From an uncultured Alphaproteobacteria bacterium (lineage in GTDB: Bacteria; Pseudomonadota; Alphaproteobacteria; Rs-D84): 32,000 nucleotides of DNA. Below are positions 2,552-32,000 of this stretch, piece after piece; position 1 is the first letter of the stretch, and each line of letters starts with the position of its first letter. Under the pieces are notes generated by a model. The model worked only from the letters and a program-made list of their open reading frames with translations. It did no database searches and was not told the origin of the DNA. Location of the stretch: positions 450,001-482,000 of the forward strand of contig OZ007020.1 of assembly GCA_963931495.1 (NCBI GenBank), read 5' to 3'. The position numbers and the translations under genes are program-made.

Positions 2552-5056
2552 ATGTTAATAAAAAAATTTGTTCTGTCTGTAATGGGGATTTTTGCATTCG
2601 TTGGAACGCAAAATGCGTTTGCTGTGGCGCGAACAACAACGCAATCTGCAATCCAACAAGGAACAACGGTTCGTACAAAAATAGAAGCCGTCGGTTTATA
2701 TGACCAGGCCTGTTATGATGCGTATTTTGGATGTATGGACCAGTTTTGTATCATTGATAATGCAAATGGTGGCGCGTGCGGGTGCAGTGATGACAGTATT
2801 GAATATGAACAGGAATTTGCCGCGATTCAAGAAATTTTGGATGAAGCCACACGTTTGCGCACCGAAGAGGTTGAACGTGTTCAGGCCGGCGCAAATGCAG
2901 ATATTATATTTTCTGGGGAACGCAGATATGATGCAGACGGAAATATTATTGATGACGAAGAATTAAGTGCCGAAGAACAAAAGGCCCAAGAACGCGCAGA
3001 ATTGTTGGCGCTGTTTAATACCAGCATTTATGACGAACCAGAAGAAGATACAACAACCAGCATTGCGGATATGGTTGGTGACGAACTGTATCGCACGGCC
3101 GATGAATTGTGCGTGGCCCAGGTGCCGGATTCTTGTGCCGGGGATATTGATTTCTTGCGTCAATTATATTCGCGGCAAATTACGTCGGACTGTTTGGGGT
3201 ACAAGAATTCATTAACGGCGAAGCGGGCCGAAGCAGAACTGGATTTGGCAGATGCAGAAGCAGCAGTACGTGCGGCATTACAGGAAAGTTTTGAAAGTGC
3301 AAATAAATATGATTTGGGACAGTGTATGGTTGAATTCAAAAAGTGTATGCAGACCGAAGACGCATGTGGTGAAAACTGGGAAAACTGTGTCGCAACCATT
3401 GCCGCAGAAAATATGCAAAATAATGCCGCGGTCAGTACAGCTGGAACAGTTGCGGAATCTGTGGATACGTACAATATTACCGAATCAACAATGGACATAT
3501 TGAATACTAAACGTCCAATTTGTGAAAATGTTTTGGCCCAGTGTGTGGCTGTGCGTGATATGGTGTGGCCAAATTTCTTGAAAGAGGCCGCGCCCACAAT
3601 TCGGGTGGCGGAATTACAGGCAGAATCAAAATTCCGTCAGTCTTGTTTAACAACAATTTCTGAATGTATTACAACCGCGTGTCGCGATGATATTGCCGGC
3701 AAAGGCGTTGCCACCATGGATGCATGTTTGTCACGTCCGGAAATGGCGCGCAGTTTCTGCAAGGTTGAAATTGATCCGTGTGAACGTATGGAACCGCTGA
3801 TTTGGGGATATGTAGAAGACAAATTGGCGGCAATGCGTGTTGACGCATGTACACAAGAAGTCAAAGATTGCTTTACCGCCGACACGCGCTGTGGGGCAAA
3901 TTTTGAAAACTGTATTGGTATGGATTATGACTATATCCATGAAATGTGCCCAATTGACAGTCTGGTCGTGTGCAAGGCAAATAATCCGAATTTTTCCATG
4001 GACGATTTGGATTCTATGTTGATGGGATTGTATCTGAATATTGATAATGCAATGCTGGACCAGTGTCAAAACTTGGTTGACCAGAAAATGGCGGAAATTT
4101 GCGGCAGTACAACTGATTGTAACCGGTTTGCTGCGGATGATACAATTGGTACTGGTTCACTGCGGTCGCAGAAAGATGGCGATGTGTATCGGGTAACCGG
4201 AATGATTTCGTTCGGCAGTATTAAGATGGGTGACGCGTCTGGCCAAATGACAACATTAAATGCGGATGGTGATACCGTTAAACTGGGGCCTGGTGAAATT
4301 GGTGTTGGGGAATATATCGCAAAAATACGTGAACAAAATGCCGATGTTCCAAATGCGGATGCAATTATAAATACAATTGAAGAAGAATTGAATAATATCG
4401 CGGGGACAATTAATCGCACAATCGCGATGATAGAAGAAGATCCGGAAATTCAATATTGCGTCAGTGGACGCGACCTGTCGCAGATAACTGGTGATGATGG
4501 TGCCACGACCGAAGCGCGCTTTCCGAACCTGTTGAACCAGGTGAAAATGCAAATCGCGGTTTCTGCGTTGCGCCAGGCACAAGACAATTATAATAACAAA
4601 TTGAATACGGCGATTGCGGATGCAACCAAAAATGCATCTGCCGACATCGCGCAATACATGTGCCAGAAAATTGCAGAAAATGGCGGAAATATGCTTGCCA
4701 GTGATGCAATTGCACAGTCAACGTCGTTAAATGTTCCATATGCAATCAGTTATGATGTTGGTACAGGGTTGACCGCCGAAGACTTAACACGTGGTGGTGC
4801 CGGCGTTGTCCAGGCGGGTGGCATGACATTCAAAAATGAGGCATATTTAGGTGGCGGATCTGGACTGGAAGGCGATGGTATGACCAAAGAGGTGACAGCT
4901 GTCTTTAATCGTGATACGCGTACATGTCATATCTGTACCACTATAACGACACAAAATTGTGAAACAACCGGCAGCGTCAGTTGGTTCCACAATAACCGTA
5001 ATGTTAATTGTACAACGGAAACGTCTGGACCGGTTTGTGAAGATATTGTGATGTAG
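2552..5056 (+). CDS. secreted cysteine-rich coiled-coil protein (family unknown); paralogue of 332..2500
   Basis: A GGAGAGAG Shine-Dalgarno-like run lies just upstream of ATG 2552. The signal peptide is MLIKKFVLSVMGIFAFVGTQNAFA|VA. Its Cys blocks align with the upstream gene: ACYDAYFGCMDQFCIIDNANGGACGCS, NKYDLGQCMVEFKKCMQTEDACGENWENC, CENVLAQCVAVRDMV, QSCLTTISECITTAC. It ends ...SGPVCEDIVM, compared with CEDINM in the paralogue. Confidence 0.85.
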   Translation: MLIKKFVLSVMGIFAFVGTQNAFAVARTTTQSAIQQGTTVRTKIEAVGLYDQACYDAYFGCMDQFCIIDNANGGACGCSDDSIEYEQEFAAIQEILDEATRLRTEEVERVQAGANADIIFSGERRYDADGNIIDDEELSAEEQKAQERAELLALFNTSIYDEPEEDTTTSIADMVGDELYRTADELCVAQVPDSCAGDIDFLRQLYSRQITSDCLGYKNSLTAKRAEAELDLADAEAAVRAALQESFESANKYDLGQCMVEFKKCMQTEDACGENWENCVATIAAENMQNNAAVSTAGTVAESVDTYNITESTMDILNTKRPICENVLAQCVAVRDMVWPNFLKEAAPTIRVAELQAESKFRQSCLTTISECITTACRDDIAGKGVATMDACLSRPEMARSFCKVEIDPCERMEPLIWGYVEDKLAAMRVDACTQEVKDCFTADTRCGANFENCIGMDYDYIHEMCPIDSLVVCKANNPNFSMDDLDSMLMGLYLNIDNAMLDQCQNLVDQKMAEICGSTTDCNRFAADDTIGTGSLRSQKDGDVYRVTGMISFGSIKMGDASGQMTTLNADGDTVKLGPGEIGVGEYIAKIREQNADVPNADAIINTIEEELNNIAGTINRTIAMIEEDPEIQYCVSGRDLSQITGDDGATTEARFPNLLNQVKMQIAVSALRQAQDNYNNKLNTAIADATKNASADIAQYMCQKIAENGGNMLASDAIAQSTSLNVPYAISYDVGTGLTAEDLTRGGAGVVQAGGMTFKNEAYLGGGSGLEGDGMTKEVTAVFNRDTRTCHICTTITTQNCETTGSVSWFHNNRNVNCTTETSGPVCEDIVM

Positions 5057-5167: not shown

Positions 5168-5539
5168 ATGAAAAAAATTTCTGTGATTGCGGCCTTGGGC
5201 ACAATTGCCAGCGGGGCGGCATTTGCTGATTTCCAGCCGAATAATCCGGCGCCGGTTGGTGGCGGTTTTGTTGGCGGTAATGAAATAGTTGTCACGGTAA
5301 ATCAAGTCAAAGAAATGCGCGATGATACACCGGTGATTATCCAGGGACGTATCGTTCAACGTATGGGCGATGAAAAATATTTGTTTGAAGATTCAACAGG
5401 TTCGGTAACAGTTGAAATTGACCGCAAGGATTGGCGTGGCCAGACAGTAACACCGTCTGATACAGTTAAACTGTATGGCGAAGTTGATTCGGGCATGTTC
5501 AAAACCGAAGTTGATGTTGATTATGTCCAGAAATTGTAA
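5168..5539 (+). CDS. YgiW/YdeI-family periplasmic OB-fold (BOF) protein
   Basis: The start is moved to ATG 5168, which has an AAAAGGGG SD upstream and a signal peptide MKKISVIAALGTIASGAAFA. The mature sequence ...VKEMRDDTPVIIQGRIVQRMGDEKYLFEDSTGSVTVEIDRKDWRGQTVTPSDTVKLYGEVD...VDVDYVQKL is collinear with E. coli YgiW (...SLRDDTWVTLRGNIVERISDDLYVFKDASGTINVDIDHKRWNGVTVTPKDTVEIQGEVD...). Confidence 0.85.
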   Translation: MKKISVIAALGTIASGAAFADFQPNNPAPVGGGFVGGNEIVVTVNQVKEMRDDTPVIIQGRIVQRMGDEKYLFEDSTGSVTVEIDRKDWRGQTVTPSDTVKLYGEVDSGMFKTEVDVDYVQKL

Positions 5540-5540
5540 T

Positions 5541-5570
5541 AAAAAAATCGCCCAGTTGGGCGATTTTTTT
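5541..5570 (+). terminator. rho-independent terminator; member of the ATCGCCCA-TGGGCGAT hairpin family
   Basis: AAAAAAATCGCCCAGTTGGGCGATTTTTTT: an A-run, a GC-rich palindrome and a T-run directly after the stop at 5539. Confidence 0.7.
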
Positions 5571-5575
5571 ATGGT

Positions 5576-5604
5576 TTGCATTTATACTGAATAAATTGTA
5601 TAAT
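5576..5604 (+). promoter_or_regulatory. strong sigma70-like promoter of small Cys-rich paralogue A
   Basis: TTGCAT (5576-5581), a 17-nt spacer, then TATAAT (5599-5604). The same TTGCAT-17-TATAAT arrangement recurs at 31650-31678. Confidence 0.6.
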
Positions 5605-5610
5605 TCATAT

Positions 5611-5812
5611 CGCAACAATGTGTTATTGTTGTGTGGCTTCACATCCACTGCAAAGCATCGCGATATGCGATGAAAAATTCTCCAACCAATCCGGGTTGGA
5701 GGGGTCTTGAATATATATTGAATAAAGACCGCAATTCTTTGCAGTTGTTGTGAACCTCCAACCACTTGAATTTATTTCCGGTGGTTTTTTGTTGCAAAAA
5801 TGGGGGTCAAAG
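5611..5812 (+). promoter_or_regulatory. structured 5' leader, copy A; candidate riboswitch or attenuator-like element
   Basis: There are four pairing segments: seg1 CTCCAACC (5680-5687), seg2 GGTTGGAGG (5694-5702), seg3 CCTCCAACC (5755-5763) and seg4 GTGGTT plus a T-run (5781-5790). Hairpin P2 is GGTCTT[GAATATATATTGAATA]AAGACC (5703-5730). Hairpin P3 is 5731-5742. The SD TGGGGG lies at 5801-5806. See the findings for the model. Confidence 0.5.
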
Positions 5813-6388
5813 ATGAAAAAGATATTTGTCGCCATTGTCGCGTGCATGATCTGCAACGTTGGTTGGGGTATTAATTGGGTTTGTGAAATAGACCAGTGTG
5901 ATAAAGGAACTTGGGCGCTAGATGATAATCCTTATAATAACCCATGTATGGTTTGCCCAGCCAACACATATCAAGATGGCTGTATTAATCTTGGTGAAGA
6001 GTGTACCCCATGTCCCGCGGGGACCGGCACGATTGGTGATACGGCGGCCCATCACGACAGTATTGATGATTGTATTCCGATGGAAACAGAAGAAATATCT
6101 TGTAATCCGGGATATTATTTACCCGCAAACAGTCAACAATGTACGCAATGTCCACGTAATCATTATTGTCCCGGTGGGACGTTTACAGAAACGACATCTG
6201 ATTCTGGGATAACACAATGTCCTGATAATATGTATTCACCACTGGGGTCAGATAGTGCGGATGATTGTGGGCGCGTGTTACATATTGGCGAATATATTTT
6301 ATATCTGCGCACGGCAAAACTGACCGTGCCATCACTGAATGTCCAGATTGGCAACACGATATATTACGGTGATATGTTCCCCGCGTAA
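5813..6388 (+). CDS. small secreted Cys-rich protein, paralogue A (ephrin-receptor-like/GCC2-GCC3-type CxxCP repeats)
   Basis: The start is moved from 5750 to ATG 5813, because the longer ORF would translate the leader hairpins. The signal peptide is MKKIFVAIVACMICNVGWG. The mature part has about 14 Cys in motifs CMVCPANTYQDG, CTPCPAGTGTIG, CTQCPRNHYCPGG and QCPDNMYSPLGSDSADDC. The C-terminal tail is CGRVLHIGEYILYLRTAKLTVPSLNVQIGNTIYYGDMFPA. Confidence 0.85.
   Translation: MKKIFVAIVACMICNVGWGINWVCEIDQCDKGTWALDDNPYNNPCMVCPANTYQDGCINLGEECTPCPAGTGTIGDTAAHHDSIDDCIPMETEEISCNPGYYLPANSQQCTQCPRNHYCPGGTFTETTSDSGITQCPDNMYSPLGSDSADDCGRVLHIGEYILYLRTAKLTVPSLNVQIGNTIYYGDMFPA
6002..6388 (+). repeat. left arm of a 387-bp inverted repeat (partner 14656..15042)
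   Basis: From TGTACCCCATGTCCCGCGGGG to the stop codon, the DNA is near-identical to the reverse complement of 14656..15042, with only a handful of substitutions by eye. Identity ends exactly at the stop codon. Confidence 0.85.
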
Positions 6389-6423
6389 TAATTAATATCA
6401 CCGCCATGGGGCCCGGGGTAAAT

Positions 6424-6447
6424 AAAAAATCGCCTAATTGGGCGATT
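6424..6447. repeat. third copy of the ATCGCC..GGCGAT palindromic hairpin, in the orientation that lacks a T-run on the + strand
   Basis: AAAAAATCGCCTAATTGGGCGATT. On the + strand the hairpin is followed by GACTTGGG, not a T-run. The T-run is on the - strand, where no gene ends nearby. Confidence 0.4.
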
Positions 6448-6737
6448 GACTTGGGTATTGTTTGAATGTGCCGGTTGCAAATGGCGCGGTGACTTGAATT
6501 GATATGCGCCGGTGCAAAGACGTGTAAGCGAAAAAAATTGTATGCAGCCTGGGGCGTGTTCAGAAAACTGGAAACGCATCCCGGATGTGGTCAATATATC
6601 GGATGGAATGTTTTTTTGGGGGGGGCGATGATAGTGGTGCATGGACGTAATTCAGACAGATGCCAATATTAATCTCTGGTGTTTTTATGTTTTTTTCAAT
6701 AAACATATGAATGGAATATGTTTATAATTGCAATAAC

Positions 6738-7458: not shown

Positions 7459-8286
7459 ATGACTTGGACAATTTTAATCCTGGTGATTGGTATTCTGTTG
7501 TTCTTGTTCGGTGGTATGTTGCTGGGCAAGGGTGACGACAAAAAACCATCTGCGGGAAAAATCGTTGCAAACAAATCTATCACATTAATTGCGATTATTT
7601 TAATTGCAGGCAGCATGTGCCGTCTGTATACACCGTATTATCTGACCGCGGTTAACCCGGCAATTGTACAGGAAATGATTACAGGTATGCAGGAACAGCA
7701 ACAGGCGGAAAAGAACAAGCAAATTCGCAAGTATGTTCGCGAAGAAGGTGACAGAATGATGCGTGATGCGCCGGTTCTGGGTAATCGCGATGCGAAAAAG
7801 ACAATCTATGTCTGGACAGACTTTTCTTGCCCATTCTGCCGTCGGGTTCATGGTGAACTGGATCGCGTGATGGCGAATCGTGATGATTTCCGCGTTGTTG
7901 TAAAGAACTTCTCTATCCATGGGGCTTTGTCTGATGCGCCGGCCAAGGCAGTTATTGCAGCAAACCTGCAAGATCCAGAAAAGGCCGCGGAACTGACAGA
8001 CATGCTGATGACGCGTGAATATTATACGCAAGCAGATTTGGAAGACCAAGCCAACGTGGCAGACAAGGTTGAAGCAAATGTTATGAAATTTGCCAAAGAA
8101 GTTGGATTGGATACAGAAAAATTGAAAGAAGATATGAACGGCGAAGTTGTTGCACGCGAATTGAGAAATGTACGTGATTTGGCACAACGCTTTGAAATCA
8201 ATGGTACACCGTTCTTGATTATCGGTGAACAGGCGTTCCCGGGTGCAATCCCAGCGGATCAAATTGAAGCCGCATTGAATGAATAA
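7459..8286 (+). CDS. membrane-anchored DsbA-family thiol:disulfide oxidoreductase
   Basis: An AAAGGAGAAAATA Shine-Dalgarno region precedes the ATG. There is an N-terminal TM helix (WTILILVIGILLFLFGGMLL). The thioredoxin-fold active site is WTDFSCPFCRRVH (CPFC). The C-terminal ...INGTPFLIIGEQAFPGA is typical of the DsbA family. Confidence 0.85.
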   Translation: MTWTILILVIGILLFLFGGMLLGKGDDKKPSAGKIVANKSITLIAIILIAGSMCRLYTPYYLTAVNPAIVQEMITGMQEQQQAEKNKQIRKYVREEGDRMMRDAPVLGNRDAKKTIYVWTDFSCPFCRRVHGELDRVMANRDDFRVVVKNFSIHGALSDAPAKAVIAANLQDPEKAAELTDMLMTREYYTQADLEDQANVADKVEANVMKFAKEVGLDTEKLKEDMNGEVVARELRNVRDLAQRFEINGTPFLIIGEQAFPGAIPADQIEAALNE

Positions 8287-8561: not shown

Positions 8562-9185
8562 TTATTCAGCATCTGTACCGTTTTCTGGCGCTGGTTCTGA
8601 TGGTTGTTCAACCGGTGCTGGAACGGGTTGTTCATCTGTTTCTGCTGTACCAGACGCATTTTCTGATTCGTTGTTTTCATCAGTCTTTTTTGTTCCGAAT
8701 GTCAAAATTTTGCCGGCAACCAAGGCTTCTATTTCGTCTTGGGATTGTGCGACATATATTTTAACTGGAACAATAACGTCTGGGTGCAGGGCGATTTGTG
8801 TATCAAACGCCCCCACAGATTTAATCGGTGCGCCTAACATAACCTGGGCTGATTCAATATTGATACCGGTTAATTCTTTTAATGTGCGGGCAATATCACG
8901 TGTTGAAACCGAACCGTATAATTGGCCGGTATCACCCGCCTGGCGAATCATGTATAATTTTGCATTTTTGATTGCGTCAACATTGCCTTCGGCGGATTTG
9001 CGTGCCGCATCTTGACGTGCCTGTAATTCAGCCTTTTGTGCTTCAAACAGCGCGACGTTTTCGCGCGACCAACGCATGGCTTTGCCCAAAGGCAACAAAT
9101 AATTACGCGCGAATCCAGTCTTTACTTCAACCGTGTCGCCGATGTTGCCCAGTTTTGTAATTTTTTCTGTTAAAATAACTTTCAT
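8562..9185 (-). CDS. rplI: 50S ribosomal protein L9 with an acidic C-terminal extension
   Basis: The start is moved to ATG 9185. MKVILTEKITKLGNIGDTVEVKTGFARNYLLPLGKA is the canonical L9 N-terminal domain. The tail ...TKKTDENNESENASGTAETDEQPVPAPVEQPSEPAPENGTDAE is additional. Confidence 0.9.
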   Translation of the reverse strand: MKVILTEKITKLGNIGDTVEVKTGFARNYLLPLGKAMRWSRENVALFEAQKAELQARQDAARKSAEGNVDAIKNAKLYMIRQAGDTGQLYGSVSTRDIARTLKELTGINIESAQVMLGAPIKSVGAFDTQIALHPDVIVPVKIYVAQSQDEIEALVAGKILTFGTKKTDENNESENASGTAETDEQPVPAPVEQPSEPAPENGTDAE

Positions 9186-9802: not shown

Positions 9803-9966
9803 CTATATTTTCCTTTGGTTTACACAGCCGGCAACCCCATGTCGCCAGCAGGAATCCCACCAATTATGACGAAAAATTTAATAAAATCAAGTGTTTTGTA
9901 AATTTGATTAATCTGGCATGGATTTTTATGTGTATTTGTGTCATAATTATTCGTAACGGGCAGAGA

Positions 9967-10878
9967 ATGAAGTTCTTATACGGTGTTTTTATTGGGGTAA
10001 TGGCTGTTTTGCCGAATCTTGCCCATGGGGCGGGTTTTGTTACGCATACTGTTATGTGGGATGTTGAAGATACGCCTGATATAGGTGGCCAGGATGCATA
10101 TGATGAATATATGAAGGGCCTGTTTTGCAAAGATGGTGCCGGTGCGATAACTGTTGGTGAAAATGGTATAGAAGTATTATGTGAATCATGGAAAAGTGCA
10201 GAACCGGCAGATGCGGATATTAAAAGTGCCCATGGAATTGCGCTGTGTCGTGCACAGTGTGCCGAAAATGGTGAAATATACGTGTCTGGCACGGGTGGTG
10301 ATGATTGCCGATGTCGGCCGGCCCCATCCCAGGACCCAGAAATAATTGAACTTGAAGCATCTGTAAACCGCCAGGTGGCCAGCCGTACAAATCGCCAGAT
10401 TAACAGGGATGTAAACAGTTTGGTTAATGAAGCGGACAAGGAGTTAAGCAGTCAAATTCGTGATGAATTGCGTAATCAAAAGTCCGATTTACGGGCGGGG
10501 GCGAAAGAATCTGATTCCGCAATGTCAGAACTGACGGCGGCGGTAAATCGCGACGTTCTGGAAAGCGAAATGAGAAATCCGGACATTGACCAGATTGATA
10601 GTGATGTCGCGAAAATGAATGAAGATCTAGATAAACAGCTGGACAAGCAACTGGAATGCGAAAGTCGTAATCCGCCAATGGGGGTAAAGAAAAACGCGCT
10701 GGGGTTGTGGGTTTGCACAGAAACAGAAGACACGATTGCGGCACGCGAGCAGAAAAAGGCAAATAACAAAGCCTTAAAGGCATTCTGGGACGATATTGAT
10801 GATATTGAACGTGCGTTTAATCGTCGCGTTCGTCAATTGCGTCGTGTGGCGAATGCAGATAATGGGGGCGACCAATGA
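9967..10878 (+). CDS. secreted protein with a Cys-containing N-terminal domain and a long charged coiled coil (unknown function)
   Basis: The start is moved to ATG 9967, giving signal peptide MKFLYGVFIGVMAVLPNLAHG|AG. The N-terminal domain contains ...CRAQCAENGEIYVSGTGGDDCRCRP. The rest is D/E/R/N/Q-rich helical sequence. The stop overlaps the next start (ATGA at 10875), suggesting translational coupling. Confidence 0.7.
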   Translation: MKFLYGVFIGVMAVLPNLAHGAGFVTHTVMWDVEDTPDIGGQDAYDEYMKGLFCKDGAGAITVGENGIEVLCESWKSAEPADADIKSAHGIALCRAQCAENGEIYVSGTGGDDCRCRPAPSQDPEIIELEASVNRQVASRTNRQINRDVNSLVNEADKELSSQIRDELRNQKSDLRAGAKESDSAMSELTAAVNRDVLESEMRNPDIDQIDSDVAKMNEDLDKQLDKQLECESRNPPMGVKKNALGLWVCTETEDTIAAREQKKANNKALKAFWDDIDDIERAFNRRVRQLRRVANADNGGDQ

Positions 10879-14655: not shown

Positions 14656-15042
14656 TTACGCGGGGAACATATCACCGTAATATATCGTATTGCCAATCTG
14701 GACATTCAGTGATGGCACGGTCAGTTTTGCCGTGCGCAGATATAAAATATATTCGCCAATATGTAACACGCGCCCACAATCATCCGCACTATCTGATCCC
14801 AGTGGTGAATACATATTATCGGGACATTGTGTTATCCCAGAATCTGCGGATGATTCTGTAAACGTCCCACCGGGACAATAATGATTACGTGGACATTGTG
14901 TGCATTGTTGACTGTTTGCGGGTAAATAATATCCCGGATTACAAGATATTTCTTCTATTTCCATCGGAATACAGTCATCAATACTGTCGTGATCGGCCGC
15001 CGTATCACCAATCGTGCCGGTCCCCGCGGGACACGGGGTACA
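14656..15042 (-). repeat. right arm of the 387-bp inverted repeat (partner 6002..6388)
   Basis: The reverse complement is near-identical to 6002..6388 and encodes CTPCPAGTGTIGDTAADHDSIDDC...GNTIYYGDMFPA. Confidence 0.85.
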
Positions 15043-15249
15043 AGAAAAGTATGTACCACTTTCTTCTTGATATGTATTCGTTGGGCAAGTGCAACACATA
15101 TATGCGCCTTCGCCATCTGCTGGCGATGGTGCATTATACATTCCCGCCTGGCAATTCGTCCCCCCCGGCCTGGCGGGTGGCATGCAAATGCCCCATGCTG
15201 AATTATATGCTGTACACACGACAACAATGGCGATAAATATCTTTTTCAT
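14656..15249 (-). CDS. small secreted Cys-rich protein, paralogue B
   Basis: The start is moved from 15327 to ATG 15249, giving signal peptide MKKIFIAIVVVCTAYNSAWG. The N-terminal roughly 55 mature residues (ICMPPARPGGTNCQAGMYNAPSPADGEGAYMCCTCPTNTYQEESGTYFS) are unrelated to copy A. The C-terminal 128 aa are almost identical to copy A. Confidence 0.85.
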   Translation of the reverse strand: MKKIFIAIVVVCTAYNSAWGICMPPARPGGTNCQAGMYNAPSPADGEGAYMCCTCPTNTYQEESGTYFSCTPCPAGTGTIGDTAADHDSIDDCIPMEIEEISCNPGYYLPANSQQCTQCPRNHYCPGGTFTESSADSGITQCPDNMYSPLGSDSADDCGRVLHIGEYILYLRTAKLTVPSLNVQIGNTIYYGDMFPA

Positions 15250-15440
15250 CTTTAACCCCCATTTTCGTAACAAAAAACCACCGGAAATAAATTCAAGTGG
15301 TTGGAGGTTAGCAACTATCAAATACAATAGTGTCGTTTATTCAATATATTCACGAACCCTCCAACCGCAAGGTTGGAGTATGCGTATTTGCGAGGTTGCT
15401 ACACCCCGTATCAGAAACTTTCTGATACGTTCGTATTATA
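15250..15440 (-). promoter_or_regulatory. structured 5' leader copy B, including a TATAAT -10 box
   Basis: On the - strand: TATAAT (15440-15435), seg1 CTCCAACC (15378-15371), seg2 GGTTGGAGG (15366-15358), seg3 CCTCCAACC (15307-15299), then the AACCAC/GTGGTT hairpin and T-run (15302-15272). The P2 loop GAATATATTGAATA is conserved, while the P2 and P3 stems differ from copy A but still pair. Confidence 0.5.
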
Positions 15441-21293: not shown

Positions 21294-24200
21294 ATGTCGC
21301 AGATTTTCGGGATTTTTAGAAATAGAAATATTGCTAAAATAACCGTTTACTTTTTTTTCTCTTTACTACTTTTGCTGTGCATTGTGCCTGATGGTTATGG
21401 GGCGGGTTATACATGCTCTGCGTCGTCCAAGAAATATACATCGTGCAAATCCGGGTATTACTTAAATGGTACCGGTGCCGGTAACAGTTGTTCAACATGC
21501 AGCAGTCTGGGTTATACATCATCTGCGAATGGTAATTCCAACGGTGCGGCGGCGTGTTATAAATCATGCACCAAAGCCTGTACGCGACAGACATGTCCAT
21601 CGTCAGCATACAGTTGCAGTCATGGCAGCACATCAACATCTGGGACACAGTATTATGGTGGTTCGTGCAGTGCCCCATCTTCAACATGTTCATTGACGAT
21701 AAACAGTTGCAAATCGGGATATTATAAGAACGGCAACAGCTGTGCAACATGCAGCAGTTTGGGTTATACGTCATCTGCGAATGGTAATTCCAACGGTGCG
21801 GCGGCGTGTTATAAATCATGTACCCGTGCGTGTACGCGACAAACATGTCCGTCAAATGCGACCTGTACCCATGGCAGTACATCAACCAGTGGTACCCAAT
21901 ATTACGGTGGTTCGTGCAGTGCGGCGTCATCCACATGTTCAATCAGCATATCTTGTAACTCAGGATATTACAAAAGCGGCAGCAGCTGTCCGGCCTGTAC
22001 GAGTGTCAGTGCGACGGACTTATCACAATCATGTTCACGCAATCCAACCAGCACGGAATTAAGTAACGCACATGCATACGCAGGTACAATCAGTGGTGCG
22101 AAGCAACAGTGTACTGGTAAACATACCGGTGGTGCGGGCGGAACAGCTGGCTCTGGGTCGTGCACCGGGTGCAGCAGTTGGGGTACATGCAGTGGCGGCA
22201 CATTAACCATTACATCATGTTCGGCGGGATATTATAAAGATGGTAATAGTTGCAAATCCTGTCCATCGGGGTATACATCTGCGAACGGTACAACGGGTGG
22301 CATTGGTTCGTGTTATATTAATGTATCTGCGGGTAATTATATTAAGGCAGCAAACAGTTCAACACAATCAACGTGTACGGCGGGGTATTGGAATCCGGCA
22401 CATACCGTGTACTATGGCAACACGTCTAGTTGTAATAAGTGCACAGGCACAACATATTCAGATACTGATGGCGCCAGCAGTTGCAAGCAATGCCCAACCG
22501 CAACAGAGTATGCCGACATAATAACAAGTTATTGGTATTGGTCAGAAGATGATATTCATGACACTATTGGTGGCTGTCGTGCCGAGTTTGATGAATCAGA
22601 TTCCAAGGGTTCGTACAATTACAGCTGTGCATATAAAAATGGTGATTATGGCGTTGCCGGTGGTGGTACCGGTACATGTATGGCGACGAAACCAAATTCT
22701 TGTGCTGCGACATATTATTGGCCGGGTGGAGATTCTAATATTTGGGCGGGCAATCGTGCGGAATTGTTAACGCAAATGTGTTCCAGTGTTGGCAAGGGAT
22801 ATTGGTCGGCGGCCGGTTCTTTGACCCGCAGCCAGTGTCCAGCGAACTATCGCGATGGCGCGGCGGCGGGCAGTCAGGCGGGTTGCAAGACCAGTTGTGC
22901 GGCCGGGACATATGTAAAGACAGCAAATGCAGCGTGTACATCTGTTGGCACGGGATATTACCGTGCTGCGCATACGGTAAGTTACGGCAGCACCAGTACC
23001 CGCAGCCAGTGTCCAGCGAACTATCGCGATGGCGCGGCGGCGGGCAGTCAGGCGGGTTGCAAGACCAGTTGTGCGGCGGGAACATACGTTGCGACAGCGA
23101 ATGCAGCGTGTACGTCGGTTGGTACGGGATATTATCGTGCGGCGCATACGGTAAGTTACGGCAGCACCAGTACCCGCAGCCAGTGTCCAGCGAACTATCG
23201 CGATGGCGCAGCGGCGGGCAGTCAAAATAACTGTATTGGTATATTTGAAAAAACAGGTGGCCAGAATAATCCGACCAAACCGACGGGTTGTGCAACGATG
23301 GAATACGCATCATCGTGTACACCGCCAACGTGTGAATATCAAAAGAACTATGCGGGTACTGTTGTTAAAGATTGTACGCCCGGGAATTGTACCAAGGCGA
23401 TAACAAAACTGACGGCAAATGCCGACAGATATGTGAATGGCACAACGTCTTGTCCGGCGTGCAGCAGTTACAGCAGTACGTACACCAAGTCAGATGGCGG
23501 CAGTATTACGTATAACTCTTGTTATATTACCAGAAGCAAGACGGGCAGCCAGGTTAACGGCAGTACGCCCAGTGGGTGTGCCAGTGTGACGGCATGGTAC
23601 GCATGTACGCCCGGCACGTGCACATACAAGGACTATTTGGGTCAGACTGGTGAAACATGCACGCCATCAAACTGTACTAAGTCGCCAAAGACGGTTACGG
23701 CAAAGGAGAATTACTATGTCAGTGGTGCAACATGTCCGGCGTGCAGCAGTTACAGCAGTACATACACCAAGTCAGATGGCGGCAGTATTACGTATAACTC
23801 TTGTTATATTACCAGAAGCAAGACGGGCAGCCAGGTTAACGGCAGTACGCCCAGTGGGTGTGCCAGTGTAACGGCGTGGAATGCATGTACGCCCGGCAAA
23901 TGTACGTACAAAGACTATTTGGGTCAGACAGGTGAAACCTGTACCCCATCAAACTGCACGAAAACGCCAAAGACAGTTAGGGCCAAAGAGAATTACTACG
24001 TCAGTGGTACGTCTTGTCCGGCATGCAGCAGTTACAGCAGTACATATACCAAGTCAGATGGTGGTTCAATAAGCAGTGCATATTGTTACCGAACAGCCAC
24101 CAAGACGGGCAGTCAGGTTAATGGCAGTACGCCCAGTGGGTGTGCCAGTGTAACGGCGTGGAATGCATGCACCCCCGGCACATGTACGTACAAGGACTAT

Positions 24201-25589
24201 GCCAGTGCGACGGATACAACATGTACACCGTCAAACTGCACAAAAACGCCAAAGACGGTTACGGCAAAGGAGAATTACTATGTCAGTGGTACGTCTTGTC
24301 CGGCGTGCAGCAGTTACAGCAGTACATACACCAAGTCAGATGGCGGTTCAATAAGCAGTGCATATTGTTACCGAACAGCCACCAAGACGGGCAGCCAGGT
24401 TAATGGCAGTACGCCCAGTGGGTGTGCCAGTGTAACGGCATGGAATGCATGCACGCCCGGCACATGTACGTACAAGGACTATGCCAGTGCGACGGATACA
24501 ACATGTACACCGTCAAACTGCACAAAAACGCCAAAGACGGTTACGGCAAAGGAGAATTACTACGTCAGTGGCACGTCCTGTCCAACATGCCCAACGGGGT
24601 ATCCGAACTCGGATGGTGGTACGGGTGGTGTAACGGTGTGTTACAGTAATACAAAATCCCGTGCATGGACCGGCAGCCAGGTTAACGGCAGTACGCCCAG
24701 TGGGTGTGCCAGTGTAACAGCGTGGAATGCATGTTCCAAGCCGGCATGTAGTTATGTTGCGTATTCCAACAGTGCTGGTACGGGCGATGGCGAAATAAAA
24801 AGTGGATGCAGCAGTAATAGCGCCAGTTGTACCAAGACCCCAAAGACAGTTACGGCCAAGGAGAATTACTATGTCAGTGGCACGTCCTGTCCAACATGCC
24901 CAACGGGGTATCCGAACTCGGATGGTGGTACGGGTGGTGTAACGGTGTGTTACAGTAATACAAAATCCCGTGCATGGACCGGCAGCCAGGTTAACGGCAG
25001 TACGCCCAGTGGATGTGCCAGTGTAACAGCGTGGAATGCATGTTCCAAGCCGGCATGTAGTTATGTTGCGTATTCCAACAGTGCTGGTACGGGCGATGGC
25101 ACAATAAAGAGTGGTTGCAGCAGTAATAGCGCCAGTTGCACAAAAAACCCAAAGACGGTTACGGCCAAGGAGAATTACTATGTCAGTGGCACGTCCTGTC
25201 CGACATGTCCGACGGGGTATCCGAACTCGGCGGGTGGGAACATTGGTCAAAGCATGTGCTATAAGACATGTGAAGACATAGACATTACCGGTGGGACGAA
25301 TGTACCGACCAGTGGCACGGCGTATTATGGCAACAGTTGCACATATACGACGGTTTGTGACGATGGGTATAATCTGACGGGGACAAACACGTGCAGCCAG
25401 TTATGTACACTGGGTGTGACCAGTCTGCGTACGGGTAATGGTGTGACGATACCGTTGTACAGTTCGGCATTATCCACACCATCGTTAAACATTGGTACTG
25501 GTGGTGGTGTATGCTATGGCATATTGGAAAGTGGTGCGGGAACACTGAACATCCAATATGACGGCAAAACGTATCACGCGGTGGATTAA
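21294..25589 (+). CDS. giant secreted Cys/Ser/Thr/Gly-rich repeat protein (CxxC-GYY modules; VSP-, furin- or GCC2-GCC3-like)
   Basis: A single uninterrupted 1431-codon ORF with a GGAGGG SD. The N-terminal hydrophobic signal or anchor is ...ITVYFFFSLLLLLCIVPDGYG|AGYTC. It is modular throughout: CKSGYY.NG.SC.TCSS, CKSCPSGYTSANG, SQCPANYRDGAAAGSQAGCKTSCAAGTYV, SCPACSSYSSTYTKSDGG, SCPTCPTGYPNSDGG. The C-terminus shares the LRT...PSLN(I/V)...YG module with the small paralogues. Confidence 0.85.
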   Translation: MSQIFGIFRNRNIAKITVYFFFSLLLLLCIVPDGYGAGYTCSASSKKYTSCKSGYYLNGTGAGNSCSTCSSLGYTSSANGNSNGAAACYKSCTKACTRQTCPSSAYSCSHGSTSTSGTQYYGGSCSAPSSTCSLTINSCKSGYYKNGNSCATCSSLGYTSSANGNSNGAAACYKSCTRACTRQTCPSNATCTHGSTSTSGTQYYGGSCSAASSTCSISISCNSGYYKSGSSCPACTSVSATDLSQSCSRNPTSTELSNAHAYAGTISGAKQQCTGKHTGGAGGTAGSGSCTGCSSWGTCSGGTLTITSCSAGYYKDGNSCKSCPSGYTSANGTTGGIGSCYINVSAGNYIKAANSSTQSTCTAGYWNPAHTVYYGNTSSCNKCTGTTYSDTDGASSCKQCPTATEYADIITSYWYWSEDDIHDTIGGCRAEFDESDSKGSYNYSCAYKNGDYGVAGGGTGTCMATKPNSCAATYYWPGGDSNIWAGNRAELLTQMCSSVGKGYWSAAGSLTRSQCPANYRDGAAAGSQAGCKTSCAAGTYVKTANAACTSVGTGYYRAAHTVSYGSTSTRSQCPANYRDGAAAGSQAGCKTSCAAGTYVATANAACTSVGTGYYRAAHTVSYGSTSTRSQCPANYRDGAAAGSQNNCIGIFEKTGGQNNPTKPTGCATMEYASSCTPPTCEYQKNYAGTVVKDCTPGNCTKAITKLTANADRYVNGTTSCPACSSYSSTYTKSDGGSITYNSCYITRSKTGSQVNGSTPSGCASVTAWYACTPGTCTYKDYLGQTGETCTPSNCTKSPKTVTAKENYYVSGATCPACSSYSSTYTKSDGGSITYNSCYITRSKTGSQVNGSTPSGCASVTAWNACTPGKCTYKDYLGQTGETCTPSNCTKTPKTVRAKENYYVSGTSCPACSSYSSTYTKSDGGSISSAYCYRTATKTGSQVNGSTPSGCASVTAWNACTPGTCTYKDYASATDTTCTPSNCTKTPKTVTAKENYYVSGTSCPACSSYSSTYTKSDGGSISSAYCYRTATKTGSQVNGSTPSGCASVTAWNACTPGTCTYKDYASATDTTCTPSNCTKTPKTVTAKENYYVSGTSCPTCPTGYPNSDGGTGGVTVCYSNTKSRAWTGSQVNGSTPSGCASVTAWNACSKPACSYVAYSNSAGTGDGEIKSGCSSNSASCTKTPKTVTAKENYYVSGTSCPTCPTGYPNSDGGTGGVTVCYSNTKSRAWTGSQVNGSTPSGCASVTAWNACSKPACSYVAYSNSAGTGDGTIKSGCSSNSASCTKNPKTVTAKENYYVSGTSCPTCPTGYPNSAGGNIGQSMCYKTCEDIDITGGTNVPTSGTAYYGNSCTYTTVCDDGYNLTGTNTCSQLCTLGVTSLRTGNGVTIPLYSSALSTPSLNIGTGGGVCYGILESGAGTLNIQYDGKTYHAVD
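21444..21953 (+). repeat. in-frame tandem repeat, two units of about 252-264 bp
   Basis: TGCAGCAGT(C/T)TGGGTTATAC...AATGGTAATTCCAACGGTGCGGCGGCGTGTTATAAATCATG occurs at 21498 and 21750. The units start at TGCAAATC(C)GGG, at 21444 and 21708. Confidence 0.8.
22827..23230 (+). repeat. in-frame tandem repeat, 174-bp period, about 2.3 units
   Basis: The anchor CGCAGCCAGTGTCCAGCGAACTATCGCGATGGCGC is at 22827, 23001 and 23175. The units encode SQCPANYRDGAAAGSQAGCKTSCAAGTYV.TANAACTSVGTGYYRAAHTVSYGSTSTR. Confidence 0.85.
23385..25230 (+). repeat. in-frame tandem repeat array with 282-bp (x4-5) then 309-bp (x2) periods
   Basis: The anchor AGTACGCCCAGTGG is at 23562, 23844, 24126, 24408, 24690 and 24999, giving spacings of 282, 282, 282, 282 and 309. 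Neighbouring units such as 24126-24330 and 24408-24612 differ at only a few positions. Confidence 0.9.
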
Positions 25590-27706: not shown

Positions 27707-28574
27707 TTATGAATAATAGCATGGCTGTACGTATGTATAGTTACCGGTGCTGTCACTGCCACTTGGGGGGATGACGTAACAACTGCTGATGCTGACCGTT
27801 TTTCCGATGTCGCCGGCTGTGGCCGTTGTTTGACCGCCAGACGAGTATGTCGGGCATGGCGTACAGTATGATGTTATCTGGTTCACGAAACTTATGCCGG
27901 GTGTACCGTAATAACCACGGGGACAGCGCACTTGGTCGGGCATTGTTGTCATGCATAGTGTGCTGGTGCTGTTGCACGCCTTGTTTGTGCGTCTTTGTAC
28001 GGCATTACTGCCGCTGTATAAAGTTTCCCATTCGTCCGGCACGCATGTTGATTCATCACATGAACCAGACGGCGATGTCGTTTTGTTATACAGGCATTTA
28101 TAGAATATCAATGTTGACGGACATCCGCGGATTTCAAATGTCTTGCGGGTGTAGTTCGTTTTGCAACCTGTTGCGGATTTTGCGTAATATTTTATACCAT
28201 CAATATCAAAACATACATTTGTGGTACCCGTGGCCCCAGAATCACCCAACACAGATGCAGACGAACCCGTATCTTGCCATTCGGTGCGACTGGAAATATC
28301 GGTACATCCCGCAGATATACACAACGCAAATCCGCCACCACCACCACCGGCACCACCAGTACTATCTTCACACTGAACACAGCAACTGGCGCCTTTCCCA
28401 ACTGCCGCATTCTATGCAGTTATGGATACATCTGTCGCCAGAAAAACTGATATCGCCACCCGAAGAACTGGCCGCGTTTGCATATTGGACACACATGGTT
28501 AACATAATCGCTGAAAACAAACCACCGTTTATAATGGCGGTTTTTATTTTTGTAAAAATCCCAGATTTCTGCAT
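27707..28574 (-). pseudogene. Cys-rich secreted protein split by a 1-nt frameshift (pseudogene, assembly error or recoding)
   Basis: The upstream piece runs 28574..28368. It has SD GTGGGGGA, signal peptide MQKSGIFTKIKTAIINGGLFSAIMLTMCVQYANA|ASS, then ...CIHNCIECGSWERRQLLCSV and a stop. The downstream frame is open from 28411 to 27707 (...GKGASCCVQCEDSTGGAGGGGGGFALCISAGCTD...RCPRGYYGTPG...CTPCPTYSSGG...). It has no ATG or SD of its own; the ORF track starts it at a TTG. The two frames overlap across 28371-28411. Confidence 0.6.
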
Positions 28575-28637
28575 TTTTTGTCCCCCACTTTTTGCCGAAT
28601 CCAAACGGTGGTTTAGGTTAGGCATCTATTCGTACAT

Positions 28638-28667
28638 ATTTTACCCAAAAATCCGACCATACGTCAA
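28638..28667 (-). promoter_or_regulatory. sigma70-like promoter candidate for 28574 gene
   Basis: On the - strand: TTGACG (28667-28662), an 18-nt spacer, then TAAAAT (28643-28638). Confidence 0.4.
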
Positions 28668-28834
28668 CGGCATTTTTGATGTTTGCTGTCGGTTTTTTAT
28701 TTCTATTAATAACAATAATTCATAAAAAATACCGTTTTATCTGATTTGTGGTAATCAGAATTGCTCACGAAATTTTTACTTTGCGATTATATGGATGATA
28801 ACGGATATAATTTGCTTGTTTTAATGACAGAATG

Positions 28835-31646: not shown

Positions 31647-31649
31647 CGT

Positions 31650-31678
31650 TTGCATTTATATTTAATAAATTGTATAAT
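31650..31678 (+). promoter_or_regulatory. strong sigma70-like promoter of paralogue C
   Basis: TTGCAT (31650-31655), a 17-nt spacer, then TATAAT (31673-31678). The block GTTTGCATTTATA..AATAAATTGTATAATTC is shared with 5574-5606. Confidence 0.6.
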
Positions 31679-31684
31679 TCCAGT

Positions 31685-31885
31685 TGCAGTGATGTGTTGT
31701 TGCTGCGGGGCGTCACAACCTCTTATCAAGTGTCTGAGTCAAGACAAAAATATATCTCCAACCATATGGTTGGAGGGACCCTGGAATATATTGAATACAG
31801 GTCGCAATTCTTGATAATTGTTGTGAACCTCCAACCACTTGAAATTATTTCCGGTGGTTTTTTGTTGCAAAAATGGGGGTTAAAG
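31685..31885 (+). promoter_or_regulatory. structured 5' leader copy C
   Basis: seg1 CTCCAACC (31756-31763), seg2 GGTTGGAGG (31768-31776), P2 GACC(C)TG[GAATATATTGAATA]CAGGTC, P3 CAATT-CTTGAT-AATTG, seg3 CCTCCAACC (31828-31836), AACCAC/GTGGTT plus T-run (31833-31864), and SD TGGGGG (31874-31879). Confidence 0.5.
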
Positions 31886-32000
31886 ATGAAAAAGATATTT
31901 ATCGCCATTGTCGCGTGCATGATCTGCAATGTTGGTTGGGATAAACAACTGATAGAACAAGAGAAGCAAAAAGACTTGAAAAACAATTATGACGCTGTTA
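31886..32000 (+). CDS. third member driven by the same leader and signal peptide (5' part only; runs off the window)
   Basis: ATG 31886 gives MKKIFIAIVACMICNVGWDKQLIEQEKQKDLKNNYDAV. The first 18 residues are almost identical to paralogue A, and the sequence then diverges completely. It is not in the ORF track because there is no stop in the window. Confidence 0.7.
   Translation, partial: MKKIFIAIVACMICNVGWDKQLIEQEKQKDLKNNYDAV

Follow-up and report, generated by a model that had tools for sequence, protein, structure and literature searches.

Three loci in a 32,000-nt stretch of contig OZ007020.1 (positions 450,001-482,000; hereafter the window, whose own positions are used for all coordinates below), from an uncultured gut alphaproteobacterium of the Rs-D84/Enterousia group, in which genomes are reduced, belong to a family of small cysteine-rich proteins whose genes recombine with one another. 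Gene A (5813-6388, plus strand), gene B (14656-15249, minus strand) and a disrupted copy, C (from 31886, plus strand), each follow the same type of RNA leader. We consider it probable that the three are independently promoted paralogues, diversified by homologous exchange, headed by this RNA and coding for surface-displayed or secreted binding proteins. The gene structures, the domain family, the recombination, the variability between strains and the covariation in the RNA are all observed. The mechanism of diversification is of a known kind; new are the protein scaffold, the lineage that hosts it and the RNA leader dedicated to the family.

Gene A opens at ATG 5813 and encodes 191 aa, comprising a signal peptide, MKKIFVAIVACMICNVGWG (5813-5869, with the cleavage site placed after G19), three cysteine-rich modules and a beta-strand tail. 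The signal-peptide codons, which are conserved in most homologues, are 96% identical to those of C. The first module (residues 20-63; 5870-6001) is a variable N-terminal cassette, and modules 2 and 3 together with the C-terminal tail (6002-6388) form a conserved 3' block that recurs in B. Gene B, an open reading frame (ORF) of 197 aa, has a signal peptide (15190-15249), a cassette of its own (15043-15189) and the shared block (14656-15042). An original prediction, made for this stretch from its letters, had described the 3' 387 bp of A as near-identical to B, and this is so: a repeat finder returns 6002-6388 against 14656-15042 as an inverted repeat of 387 nt at 96% identity. The ORFs and both cassette peptides quoted there are likewise exact. 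In a three-way alignment scored per 30-nt window, A-B identity is 33-60% across 5845-6000, 93-100% from 6001 to the stop codon and 23% right after it, with sharp block boundaries. The 3' flank of A (6389-6450), which contains a hairpin, is common to locus C and not to B (97% versus 23% identity over 6391-6420). Upstream, a direct repeat of 158 nt (5713-5870 against 31786-31943, 92%) covers the leader and signal peptide of A and C, the promoter regions of these two loci are 79% identical over 76 nt (5574-5649 against 31648-31723), and the leaders of A and B are 86% identical (5713-5838 against 15224-15349). The cassettes of A and B had been called unrelated, which does not hold, since both carry the framework C-x2-CP-x-NTYQ and each bears the best Pfam match of its protein. 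They are highly diverged copies of one repeat, and the common framework implies shared ancestry.

The window holds only the 5' remnant of gene C, the signal-peptide codons at 31886-31940, which end in the first copy (31913-31940) of a 28-bp direct repeat, GCGTGCATGATCTGCAATGTTGGTTGGG. When locus C was followed past the window end, by extending the sequence through the ClpB gene, the gene proved to be broken after these codons by 1,002 bp of foreign DNA bracketed by the repeat (31941-32000, plus strand, and onwards; L008 12379-13380), with the remainder of the gene after it. Besides two small ORFs, the insert contains the N-terminal half of a gene for a phage major head protein (phrog_9953, E 1.9e-37), whose product shares about 40% identity with the capsid proteins of Bradyrhizobium phage ppBjS10J-1 and Myxococcus phage Mx9. 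The insertion is carried in several samples, whereas strains with an identical ClpB (L007 and L009) have an intact gene at this place. Copy C is, to judge from its sequence, a pseudogene in this genome. Candidate routes for the insertion are an integration remnant and a microhomology-mediated event; the capsid frame stays open across the junction with the remaining part of gene C, so that a fusion ORF of 345 aa results. Despite the capsid fragment, a phage-borne origin of the family was dropped because neither the protein family nor the leader motif was found on IMG/VR viral contigs. Without the insert, A and C share 93-100% identity over the signal peptide, the cassette and, further on, the 3' flank, the sole exception being a patch at about 6107-6199. 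The predicted sharing of the 5' end between A and C is therefore real but not limited to that end.

Recombination among the family members is demonstrated by several independent comparisons. The cassette of A is 97-100% identical to that of C and 33-60% identical to that of B. Within the mosaic patch of gene A (6107-6199), positions 6107-6190 follow B rather than C (100% against 63% in the 30-nt windows at 6151-6180, with which the informative sites agree), and 6191-6199 match neither B nor C but the type found at locus B of strain L016, to which the whole 3' block of A is also closest (97.9%). Because A-C identity breaks solely at 6107-6199, A is best described as a C-like gene in which one internal stretch comes from a donor of B type or from a third source. 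For ten alleles of the 387-nt block, none of 5000 permutations gave a pairwise homoplasy index (PHI) as low as that observed; 258 of 741 pairs of informative sites are incompatible, and the Hudson-Kaplan minimum (Rm) is seven events in 387 nt. Identity between A and B within one genome is 96.1% in the window and 97.7% in L017, compared with 91.7% for A against A and 93.0% for B against B between strains. That paralogues within a genome are closer than orthologues between strains is a signature of concerted evolution. Strain L022 has about 14 kb of flanking DNA that is 100% identical to the window, yet its A gene carries a B-type 3' block, 99.7% identical to the window's B (its own B lies beyond the recovered DNA), which indicates a very recent conversion. 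A table of segments from 38 full-length members shows reticulate combinations of about five signal peptides, about 12 cassettes, six linkers, at least five module types present in one or two copies, and three tails. The same cassette type is found at loci A and C, and the leader of L023 is itself chimeric, of A type with a C-type central part. The recombination or gene conversion proposed originally is borne out by these data, and the breakpoint signal suggested as a check is present in the 387-nt block by both PHI and Rm.

The strain set consisted of nine other contigs, of the same gene order as the window, in which the BOF gene is identical and the DNA matches that of the window at 99-100% over as much as 20 kb. 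At locus A this identity drops to 62-88%, and at locus B of L016 to 57%. Alleles at locus A encode 189, 191, 192 or 250 aa and represent at least four cassette types despite flanks that are 99-100% identical, so that the proposed comparison of strains turned out positive at both loci. Locus B has signal-peptide types of its own, and the L016 allele there has the MRKLIF signal peptide. Variant-cassette behaviour, as originally suggested, is thus seen between paralogues and between strains; for switching within a clone, no donors, invertase, retroelement or repeat tract were found in the sequence searched. Inversion of the 8.3-kb segment through the A/B inverted repeats was considered and rejected, the strains of the same species all being collinear. 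A metagenome-assembled genome of a related species, CALXLO010000002.1 (L001 and L003), has the order pgk, dsbA, recO, family gene, motB, motA, rpsF, which is not the product of a simple A/B inversion either. It includes a fusion-like family member of 326 aa, whose cysteine-rich N-terminal region is long and of a different kind and whose tail is frameshifted, and family genes may mark rearrangement breakpoints. Further family loci in relatives lie beside an M48 peptidase/rubrerythrin pair and beside TatA/DksA.

The mosaic could in principle have arisen without recombination, through old duplications followed by very fast divergence of the cassette by point mutation under positive selection. The cassettes do retain their ancestral framework, and the three differences between the cassettes of A and C are all non-synonymous. 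Identity, however, leaps from 40% to 97% inside one 30-nt window, site incompatibility is significantly clustered, and identical cassettes occur at different loci. The PHI and Rm results, together with the closer identity of paralogues than of orthologues, effectively refute divergence by point mutation only, to which we would give a very small residual probability. Slightly less probable again are assembly artefacts from collapsed repeats. The near-identical 387-nt repeats do exceed short-read length, but the loci of the window lie on one contig of 958,617 bp (ena:ERZ21564551:s287.ctg000449c) recorded in four samples, the identical A protein is present on eight contigs from several samples (the long contig and seven similar ones), and in other samples SPAdes, MEGAHIT and scaffold assemblies contain the loci in the same order with other alleles. 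This recurrence of the same genes in independent assemblies makes an artefact unlikely in the extreme. Programmed antigenic variation, in which one or more expression sites are rewritten often within a clone from promoterless silent cassettes, as in pilE/pilS, vlsE and msp2, deserves more consideration, and we regard it as improbable. In the known silent-cassette systems, which include Anaplasma msp2/p44, Neisseria pilE/pilS and Borrelia vlsE, conserved flanks serve as homology arms for segmental conversion; Anaplasma is moreover an alphaproteobacterium with a reduced genome. The present family has segmental gene-conversion tracts with conserved flanks as well, and its conserved 5' and 3' blocks around a hypervariable cassette of about 130-150 nt have the geometry used by such systems. 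A conversion event separates two otherwise identical strains, and a related metagenome-assembled genome (L002) has a truncated, 3'-only copy. Nevertheless, a promoter, leader, start codon and signal peptide accompany each of the three copies in the window, all of which are expression-competent or recently disrupted; no promoterless donor or extra cassette copy was returned by the repeat finder in the 32-kb window (the sequence inspected overall amounts to about 6% of the genome), and the exact A protein is unchanged on the eight contigs just mentioned. The L002 remnant (2971-3276) consists of the 3' 101 codons of a family gene, without leader or start codon, directly after a TatA-like gene, and is either a decayed copy or the sole hint of a promoterless cassette.

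Other routes to variation left no trace in the sequence searched. Tandem repeats suited to slipped-strand switching are absent from 5500-6500, and no ORF resembling a reverse transcriptase or an invertase is evident in the window's ORF list, which was not scanned against Pfam for these. Cassettes differ by insertions, deletions and wholesale replacement, not by adenine-specific substitutions. The target of a diversity-generating retroelement was rejected accordingly, there being no second copy of either cassette in the window, no adenine-specific pattern and no evident ORF resembling a reverse transcriptase. Because no promoterless cassettes were seen in the window, no repeat tracts in 5500-6500 and no evident ORFs like a reverse transcriptase or an invertase in the ORF list, the family appears to behave like opa and bab genes, that is, by mosaic evolution of several loci rather than as an expression site with an archive. 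The opa genes of Neisseria and babA, babB and sabA of Helicobacter pylori are complete paralogues with their own promoters, scattered round the chromosome and hypervariable between conserved ends; gene conversion between loci and recombination between strains make them mosaic, and one variable region recurs at different loci. The family is alike in having several complete, separately promoted paralogues with conserved ends and a hypervariable segment, and in exchange both between loci and between strains. It differs in scaffold, its small disulfide-rich modules being unrelated to the beta-barrels of opa and bab, in the on/off repeat tract, none of which was found in 5500-6500, in the placement of the variable part in the N-terminal module, and in the structured RNA leader that stands before every copy.

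Both A and B score above the curated gathering threshold (23.1 bits) of Ephrin_rec_like (PF07699), at 31.6 bits (E 1.4e-7) and 36.2 bits (E 5.4e-9), respectively, and in each the best match sits on the cassette (residues 42-79 of A, 47-85 of B). Both also have sub-threshold matches to TNFR_c6, to the tumour necrosis factor (TNF) receptor-like domain of ELAPOR1 and to NCD3G. The original assignment of the repeat type thus stands for Ephrin_rec_like and falls for VSP (PF03302) and furin-like repeats, neither of which gave a Pfam match to A or B at E up to 1. In NCBIfam, no model covers A, B, the distant relative P0044 or the neighbouring cysteine-rich proteins. When solved structures were searched with a profile of 37 family members, it matched ELAPOR1 (E 2.6e-9) and the Chlamydomonas mastigoneme protein Mst1 (E 1.7e-6), which is annotated as carrying an ephrin-receptor-like domain; EphB6 was matched merely at E 0.3. 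The AlphaFold2 model of A (mean predicted local distance difference test, pLDDT, 80) has a helix at residues 4-14, followed by a stretch of low confidence, and then beta-hairpin modules and a four-strand tail. The best Foldseek matches in the PDB are all ectodomains of the TNF-receptor superfamily (DR6, DcR3, OPG and OX40), with probabilities of 0.9-0.98 and identities of 17-22%. The profile matches favour the predicted domain, and the Foldseek matches, weak in E-value, point the same way. Mature A and B contain 14 cysteines each, as counted from the sequence. The C-terminal 40 or so residues (GRVLHIGEYILYLRTAKLTVPSLNVQIGNTIYYGDMFPA) are cysteine-free and nearly invariant, occur in a longer version in distant relatives, and weakly resemble the C-terminus of a 1431-aa repeat protein (BLASTP E 2e-5, hhalign E 1e-4). 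A lipoprotein signal peptide was considered and rejected: a lipobox is matched by IVAC in A but not by the VVVC, IAVC and SVIC of relatives.

We take A and B to represent a previously uncharacterised bacterial family of putatively secreted proteins resembling TNF and ephrin receptors, and literature on GCC2_GCC3 in bacteria, Rs-D84 and Enterousia was found to describe neither these proteins nor the RNA. Significant profile matches and the same cysteine spacing link the family to the Ephrin_rec_like (formerly GCC2_GCC3) domains and TNF-receptor cysteine-rich domains of ELAPOR1, Mst1 and the Eph receptors, and the model predicts an elongated fold that may likewise be a disulfide ladder. Unlike the eukaryotic receptors, its members are bacterial, have only three modules, a Sec signal peptide and a unique beta-strand tail, lack a transmembrane or kinase part, and are 17-22% identical to any solved structure. 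Two distant members, P0044 and P0056, pass the threshold of DUF7631 (PF24634) with 31.4 and 32.3 bits against 27. They have in common with that domain a C-x-GYYLPAN-x3-C-x2-CP module, and P0044 has the C-terminal tail as well, whereas A and B do not match DUF7631, which is a domain without assigned function. The variant-specific surface proteins of Giardia and furin-like repeats are likewise cysteine-rich and variable, with CXXC-type motifs, but this is resemblance only.

Each copy is headed by a leader of the same design. The only plus-strand promoter-like site in 5500-6500 is that of gene A (5575-5604), consisting of TTGCAT, a 17-nt spacer and TATAAT (-10 box 5599-5604), and the leader RNA is placed at 5611-5812, its transcription start being a prediction. 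This promoter arrangement is conserved at locus C, where repeats and alignment place promoter and leader at 31648-31885 (plus strand). At locus B the leader and its TATAAT box occupy 15250-15440 (minus strand), and in most metagenome copies an extended -10 box lies just upstream of helix P1. The predicted helices of leader A are P1 (5613-19/5625-31), Pa (5633-36/5645-48), P2 (5638-43/5749-54), K (5648-55/5737-44), P3 (5656-61/5666-71), P4 (5680-87/5694-5701) and P5 (5703-08/5725-30). P4 belongs to an invariant hairpin, CUCCAACC-loop-GGUUGGAGG (5680-5702), whose 3' element GGUUGGAGG occupies 5694-5702. A second CCUCCAACC element (also given as CCUCCAACCAC; 5755-5765), invariant in all three copies of the window, overlaps a terminator-like hairpin (5762-5770/5776-5784) with a U-run at 5785-5790, after which the Shine-Dalgarno sequence GGGGG follows at 5802-5806. 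In A, B and C alike, the ribosome-binding site and start codon lie within about 22 nt after the U-run. The leader of B is a variant without helix P3, in which helix K reads CAAAUAC/GUAUUUG. The locus C leader also precedes intact family genes in L007 and L009. Within the window the RNA stands solely before A, B and C.

The leader of A (about 190 nt) folds with a z-score of -5.5 relative to shuffled sequences, and RNAalifold finds 13 pairs with compensatory changes. A scan with an exact pattern located the leader at no fewer than 120 metagenome loci from rumen, termite and human gut. The pattern contained P4, whose invariance in those copies is by construction, but the 17-nt P4 element with its 8-bp stem is also invariant in all 15 distinct leaders that were recovered through protein homology or synteny. 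Self and cross complementarity were compared, free of any alignment, in 97 diverse copies among the matches listed. The perfect run of helix K has a median of 8 nt within a copy against 5 nt between copies, and reaches at least 7 nt in 84% against 2% (p = 2e-57); for P2 the medians are 7 and 4 (p = 1e-53), and a control region shows no difference. In a 15-sequence alignment, 92.6% of cells pair, compared with 80.1% for shuffled controls, none of which reached the observed value in 500 trials, and 37-47% with slid partners; five of the six pairs of P2 are changed on both sides, and P4 never varies. Because helix K is free to vary in sequence and MAFFT cannot register it, the alignment-free comparison and these pair counts, made on a length-matched subset, served in place of a covariance model. 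A further helix, P6, covaries in two states (83 copies matched and 4 mismatched among the matches listed) and flanks the 3' strand of K without a linker, so that the two probably cannot both form fully, which hints at alternative conformations. The covariation indicates that the leader is a conserved structured RNA. Large metagenome contigs carry several leaders, with helix K different in essentially every copy, and in L093 two leaders stand in tandem 250 nt apart (8757-8839 and 9003-9083) upstream of a gene for an XRE-type regulator.

A scan of the whole window against Rfam 15 (4227 families) at gathering score gave no match to the leader. At E up to 10, the sole overlap was the long non-coding RNA family MESTIT1_1 (15.7 bits against a gathering score of 50, E 6.3), which is noise, and the other weak matches lie on the terminator of the upstream BOF gene. 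A leader-peptide attenuator was rejected, the short ORFs across P4 being in different frames in A and C. The shared leader had been taken as a mark of recombination. Because the RNA is conserved at 120 or more loci, the likeness of the leaders mainly reflects functional conservation, with some exchange on top of it, as in the chimeric leader of L023.

The leader resembles riboswitches and attenuators in its position in the 5' untranslated region, in its multi-helix junction with covariation, in its terminator-like hairpin, in a predicted sequestered ribosome-binding site and in a duplicated element with mutually exclusive pairings. Minimum-energy and consensus folds alike pair ACCUCCA with the Shine-Dalgarno region UGGGGGU, and in the models GGUUGGAGG could pair instead with the second CCUCCAACC element. 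It differs from riboswitches in matching no Rfam family, in keeping one 8-bp stem fixed within the 17-nt invariant element (P4) where neighbouring helices vary freely, and in the genes downstream, which are surface proteins, regulators and methyltransferases instead of one pathway. Among the matches listed, most of these genes encode proteins with a signal peptide, of which many are rich in cysteine and some bear a tail of the same family; about 12 encode XRE-type regulators and a few DNA methyltransferases. Our tentative proposal, held with somewhat less than even confidence, is that the leader represents an undescribed class of cis-regulatory RNA in gut symbionts of the Rs-D84 type, a two-state switch that would answer to a ligand, a protein or a physical cue and gate recombining secreted or surface proteins, XRE regulators and methyltransferases; if so, a partner-dependent bacterium would gain co-ordinated control of a variable surface through it. 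Alternatively, and in our judgement less likely, though the most serious of the competing explanations, the block before these genes is a small RNA gene in its own right, or a portable module of promoter plus RNA, and does not act on them in cis. It has its own promoter, precedes very different genes, ends in a hairpin with a U-run (GGTGG and a T-run in the DNA) in 80 of the 97 diverse copies among the matches listed, and has no ORF nearby in 14 of 121 such matches. This is countered by the other 107 of the 121 listed, where an ORF with a Shine-Dalgarno sequence lies on the same strand no more than 260 nt away, by the close spacing of U-run and start codon in A, B and C, where no other promoter intervenes, and by the conserved CCUCC element predicted to pair with the ribosome-binding site.

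As we picture it, A, B and C would be three paralogues of a family in gut alphaproteobacteria with reduced genomes, related to Rs-D84 and Candidatus Enterousia. The product would be Sec-exported, some 170 residues long, a rod of three disulfide-bonded modules followed by the cysteine-free beta-strand tail. Short gene-conversion tracts would pass between the paralogues, with the leader/signal-peptide and 3' blocks as homology arms, and alleles would also be imported between strains. Such homologous exchange would keep the 3' scaffold homogenised within a genome, and would reshuffle both the first module, presumably the distal one, and how many middle modules there are. The product may act as a surface-displayed or secreted binding protein whose tip is under diversifying pressure from host immunity, phage or the choice of partner cell, and whose conserved tail may serve in anchoring or export. 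In its predicted ground state the leader hides the ribosome-binding site and forms the terminator-like hairpin; expression would then probably be gated at the RNA level, by a two-state gate on termination and translation.

That the products are instead soluble secreted effectors or decoys, for example TNF-receptor-like binders of ligands from the host or partner cells, seems unlikely to us, although rather less so than programmed variation. In its favour are the closest structural matches, which are TNF-receptor ectodomains of the soluble or decoy kind (DcR3, OPG and DR6), the small size of the proteins, and the absence from the short forms of the end of the longer C-terminal domain that distant relatives have. 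However, the cysteine-rich fold is generic and says nothing of a ligand, there is no similarity to the ligand-contact residues of TNF receptors beyond the cysteine framework (at 17-22% identity), and the conserved tail is common to the 1431-aa repeat protein, which is typical of surface structures. For the preferred role, as an exposed protein or adhesin, the evidence consists of the signal peptide and the conserved tail.

Several points weigh against this overall account. Surface location, binding, anchoring, the selective agent and the RNA switch with its trigger are what we infer; the cleavage site of the signal peptide is a judgement by eye, and no route of export to the outer membrane was identified. 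Homology of the tail is marginal (hhalign probability 56%). The Foldseek E-values are weak (about 3e-3) and template modelling (TM) scores are near 0.2, as is expected of flexible rods but not decisive. The non-synonymous differences between the A and C cassettes number only three. A simple terminator scanner did not flag the hairpin of leader A, because of one internal mismatch. Finally, the sequence covered amounts to about 60 kb of 958 kb, which bears on copy number and on silent copies.

Relatives of the family occur in metagenome-assembled genomes of uncultured alphaproteobacteria and in Candidatus Enterousia. Members of Rs-D84 and Enterousia are widespread, uncultured residents of the guts of humans, ruminants and termites, and we know of no account of how they contact partner cells. 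Enterousia has been placed in the order Rs-D84, whose members have genomes below 1 Mb, lack respiration and the tricarboxylic acid cycle, and are proposed to draw metabolites from partner cells (PMC12306168). The locus described here supplies concrete candidates for such contact, built on a module otherwise known mainly from eukaryotic surface receptors; in a chromosome that elsewhere hardly varies, their tip forms a hotspot, and gene conversion maintains its variability. Through the leader, the family is tied to other secreted proteins and to regulators, which offers a way into regulation in a lineage with few recognisable regulators. Housekeeping genes in the window include those for a CcrM-like DNA methyltransferase, RecO and ClpXP/ClpB.

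Additional cysteine-rich proteins are encoded nearby. The 1431-aa protein (21294-25589, plus strand) contains near-identical tandem repeats of 174, 252, 282 and 309 nt and belongs to no Pfam or NCBIfam family, and its C-terminus resembles the longer form of the family tail. Two adjacent genes (266-2500 and 2552-5056, plus strand) encode large secreted proteins of 744 and 834 aa with many paired cysteines and similar C-terminal CH(V/I)C...CETxG motifs, again without a Pfam or NCBIfam family; together with a DsbA-like gene (7459-8286), they suggest a large disulfide-rich exported proteome. On the minus strand, a cysteine-rich ORF of 205 aa (27707-28324) with a faint Ephrin_rec_like match (E 0.68) overlaps a publicly annotated plus-strand gene of 289 aa (27826-28725) of odd composition. 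The gene called at this position in strain L009 is on the minus strand and encodes 266 aa. The public call is probably on the wrong strand, and the 205-aa ORF may add to the variable cysteine-rich genes. Strains also differ at a second hotspot, 9904-10878 (plus strand), where a secreted, coiled-coil-like protein without a Pfam family is called at 316 aa in the window and at 352 or 482 aa in strains with 99-100% identity in the flanks; over this gene, identity drops to 44-92%.

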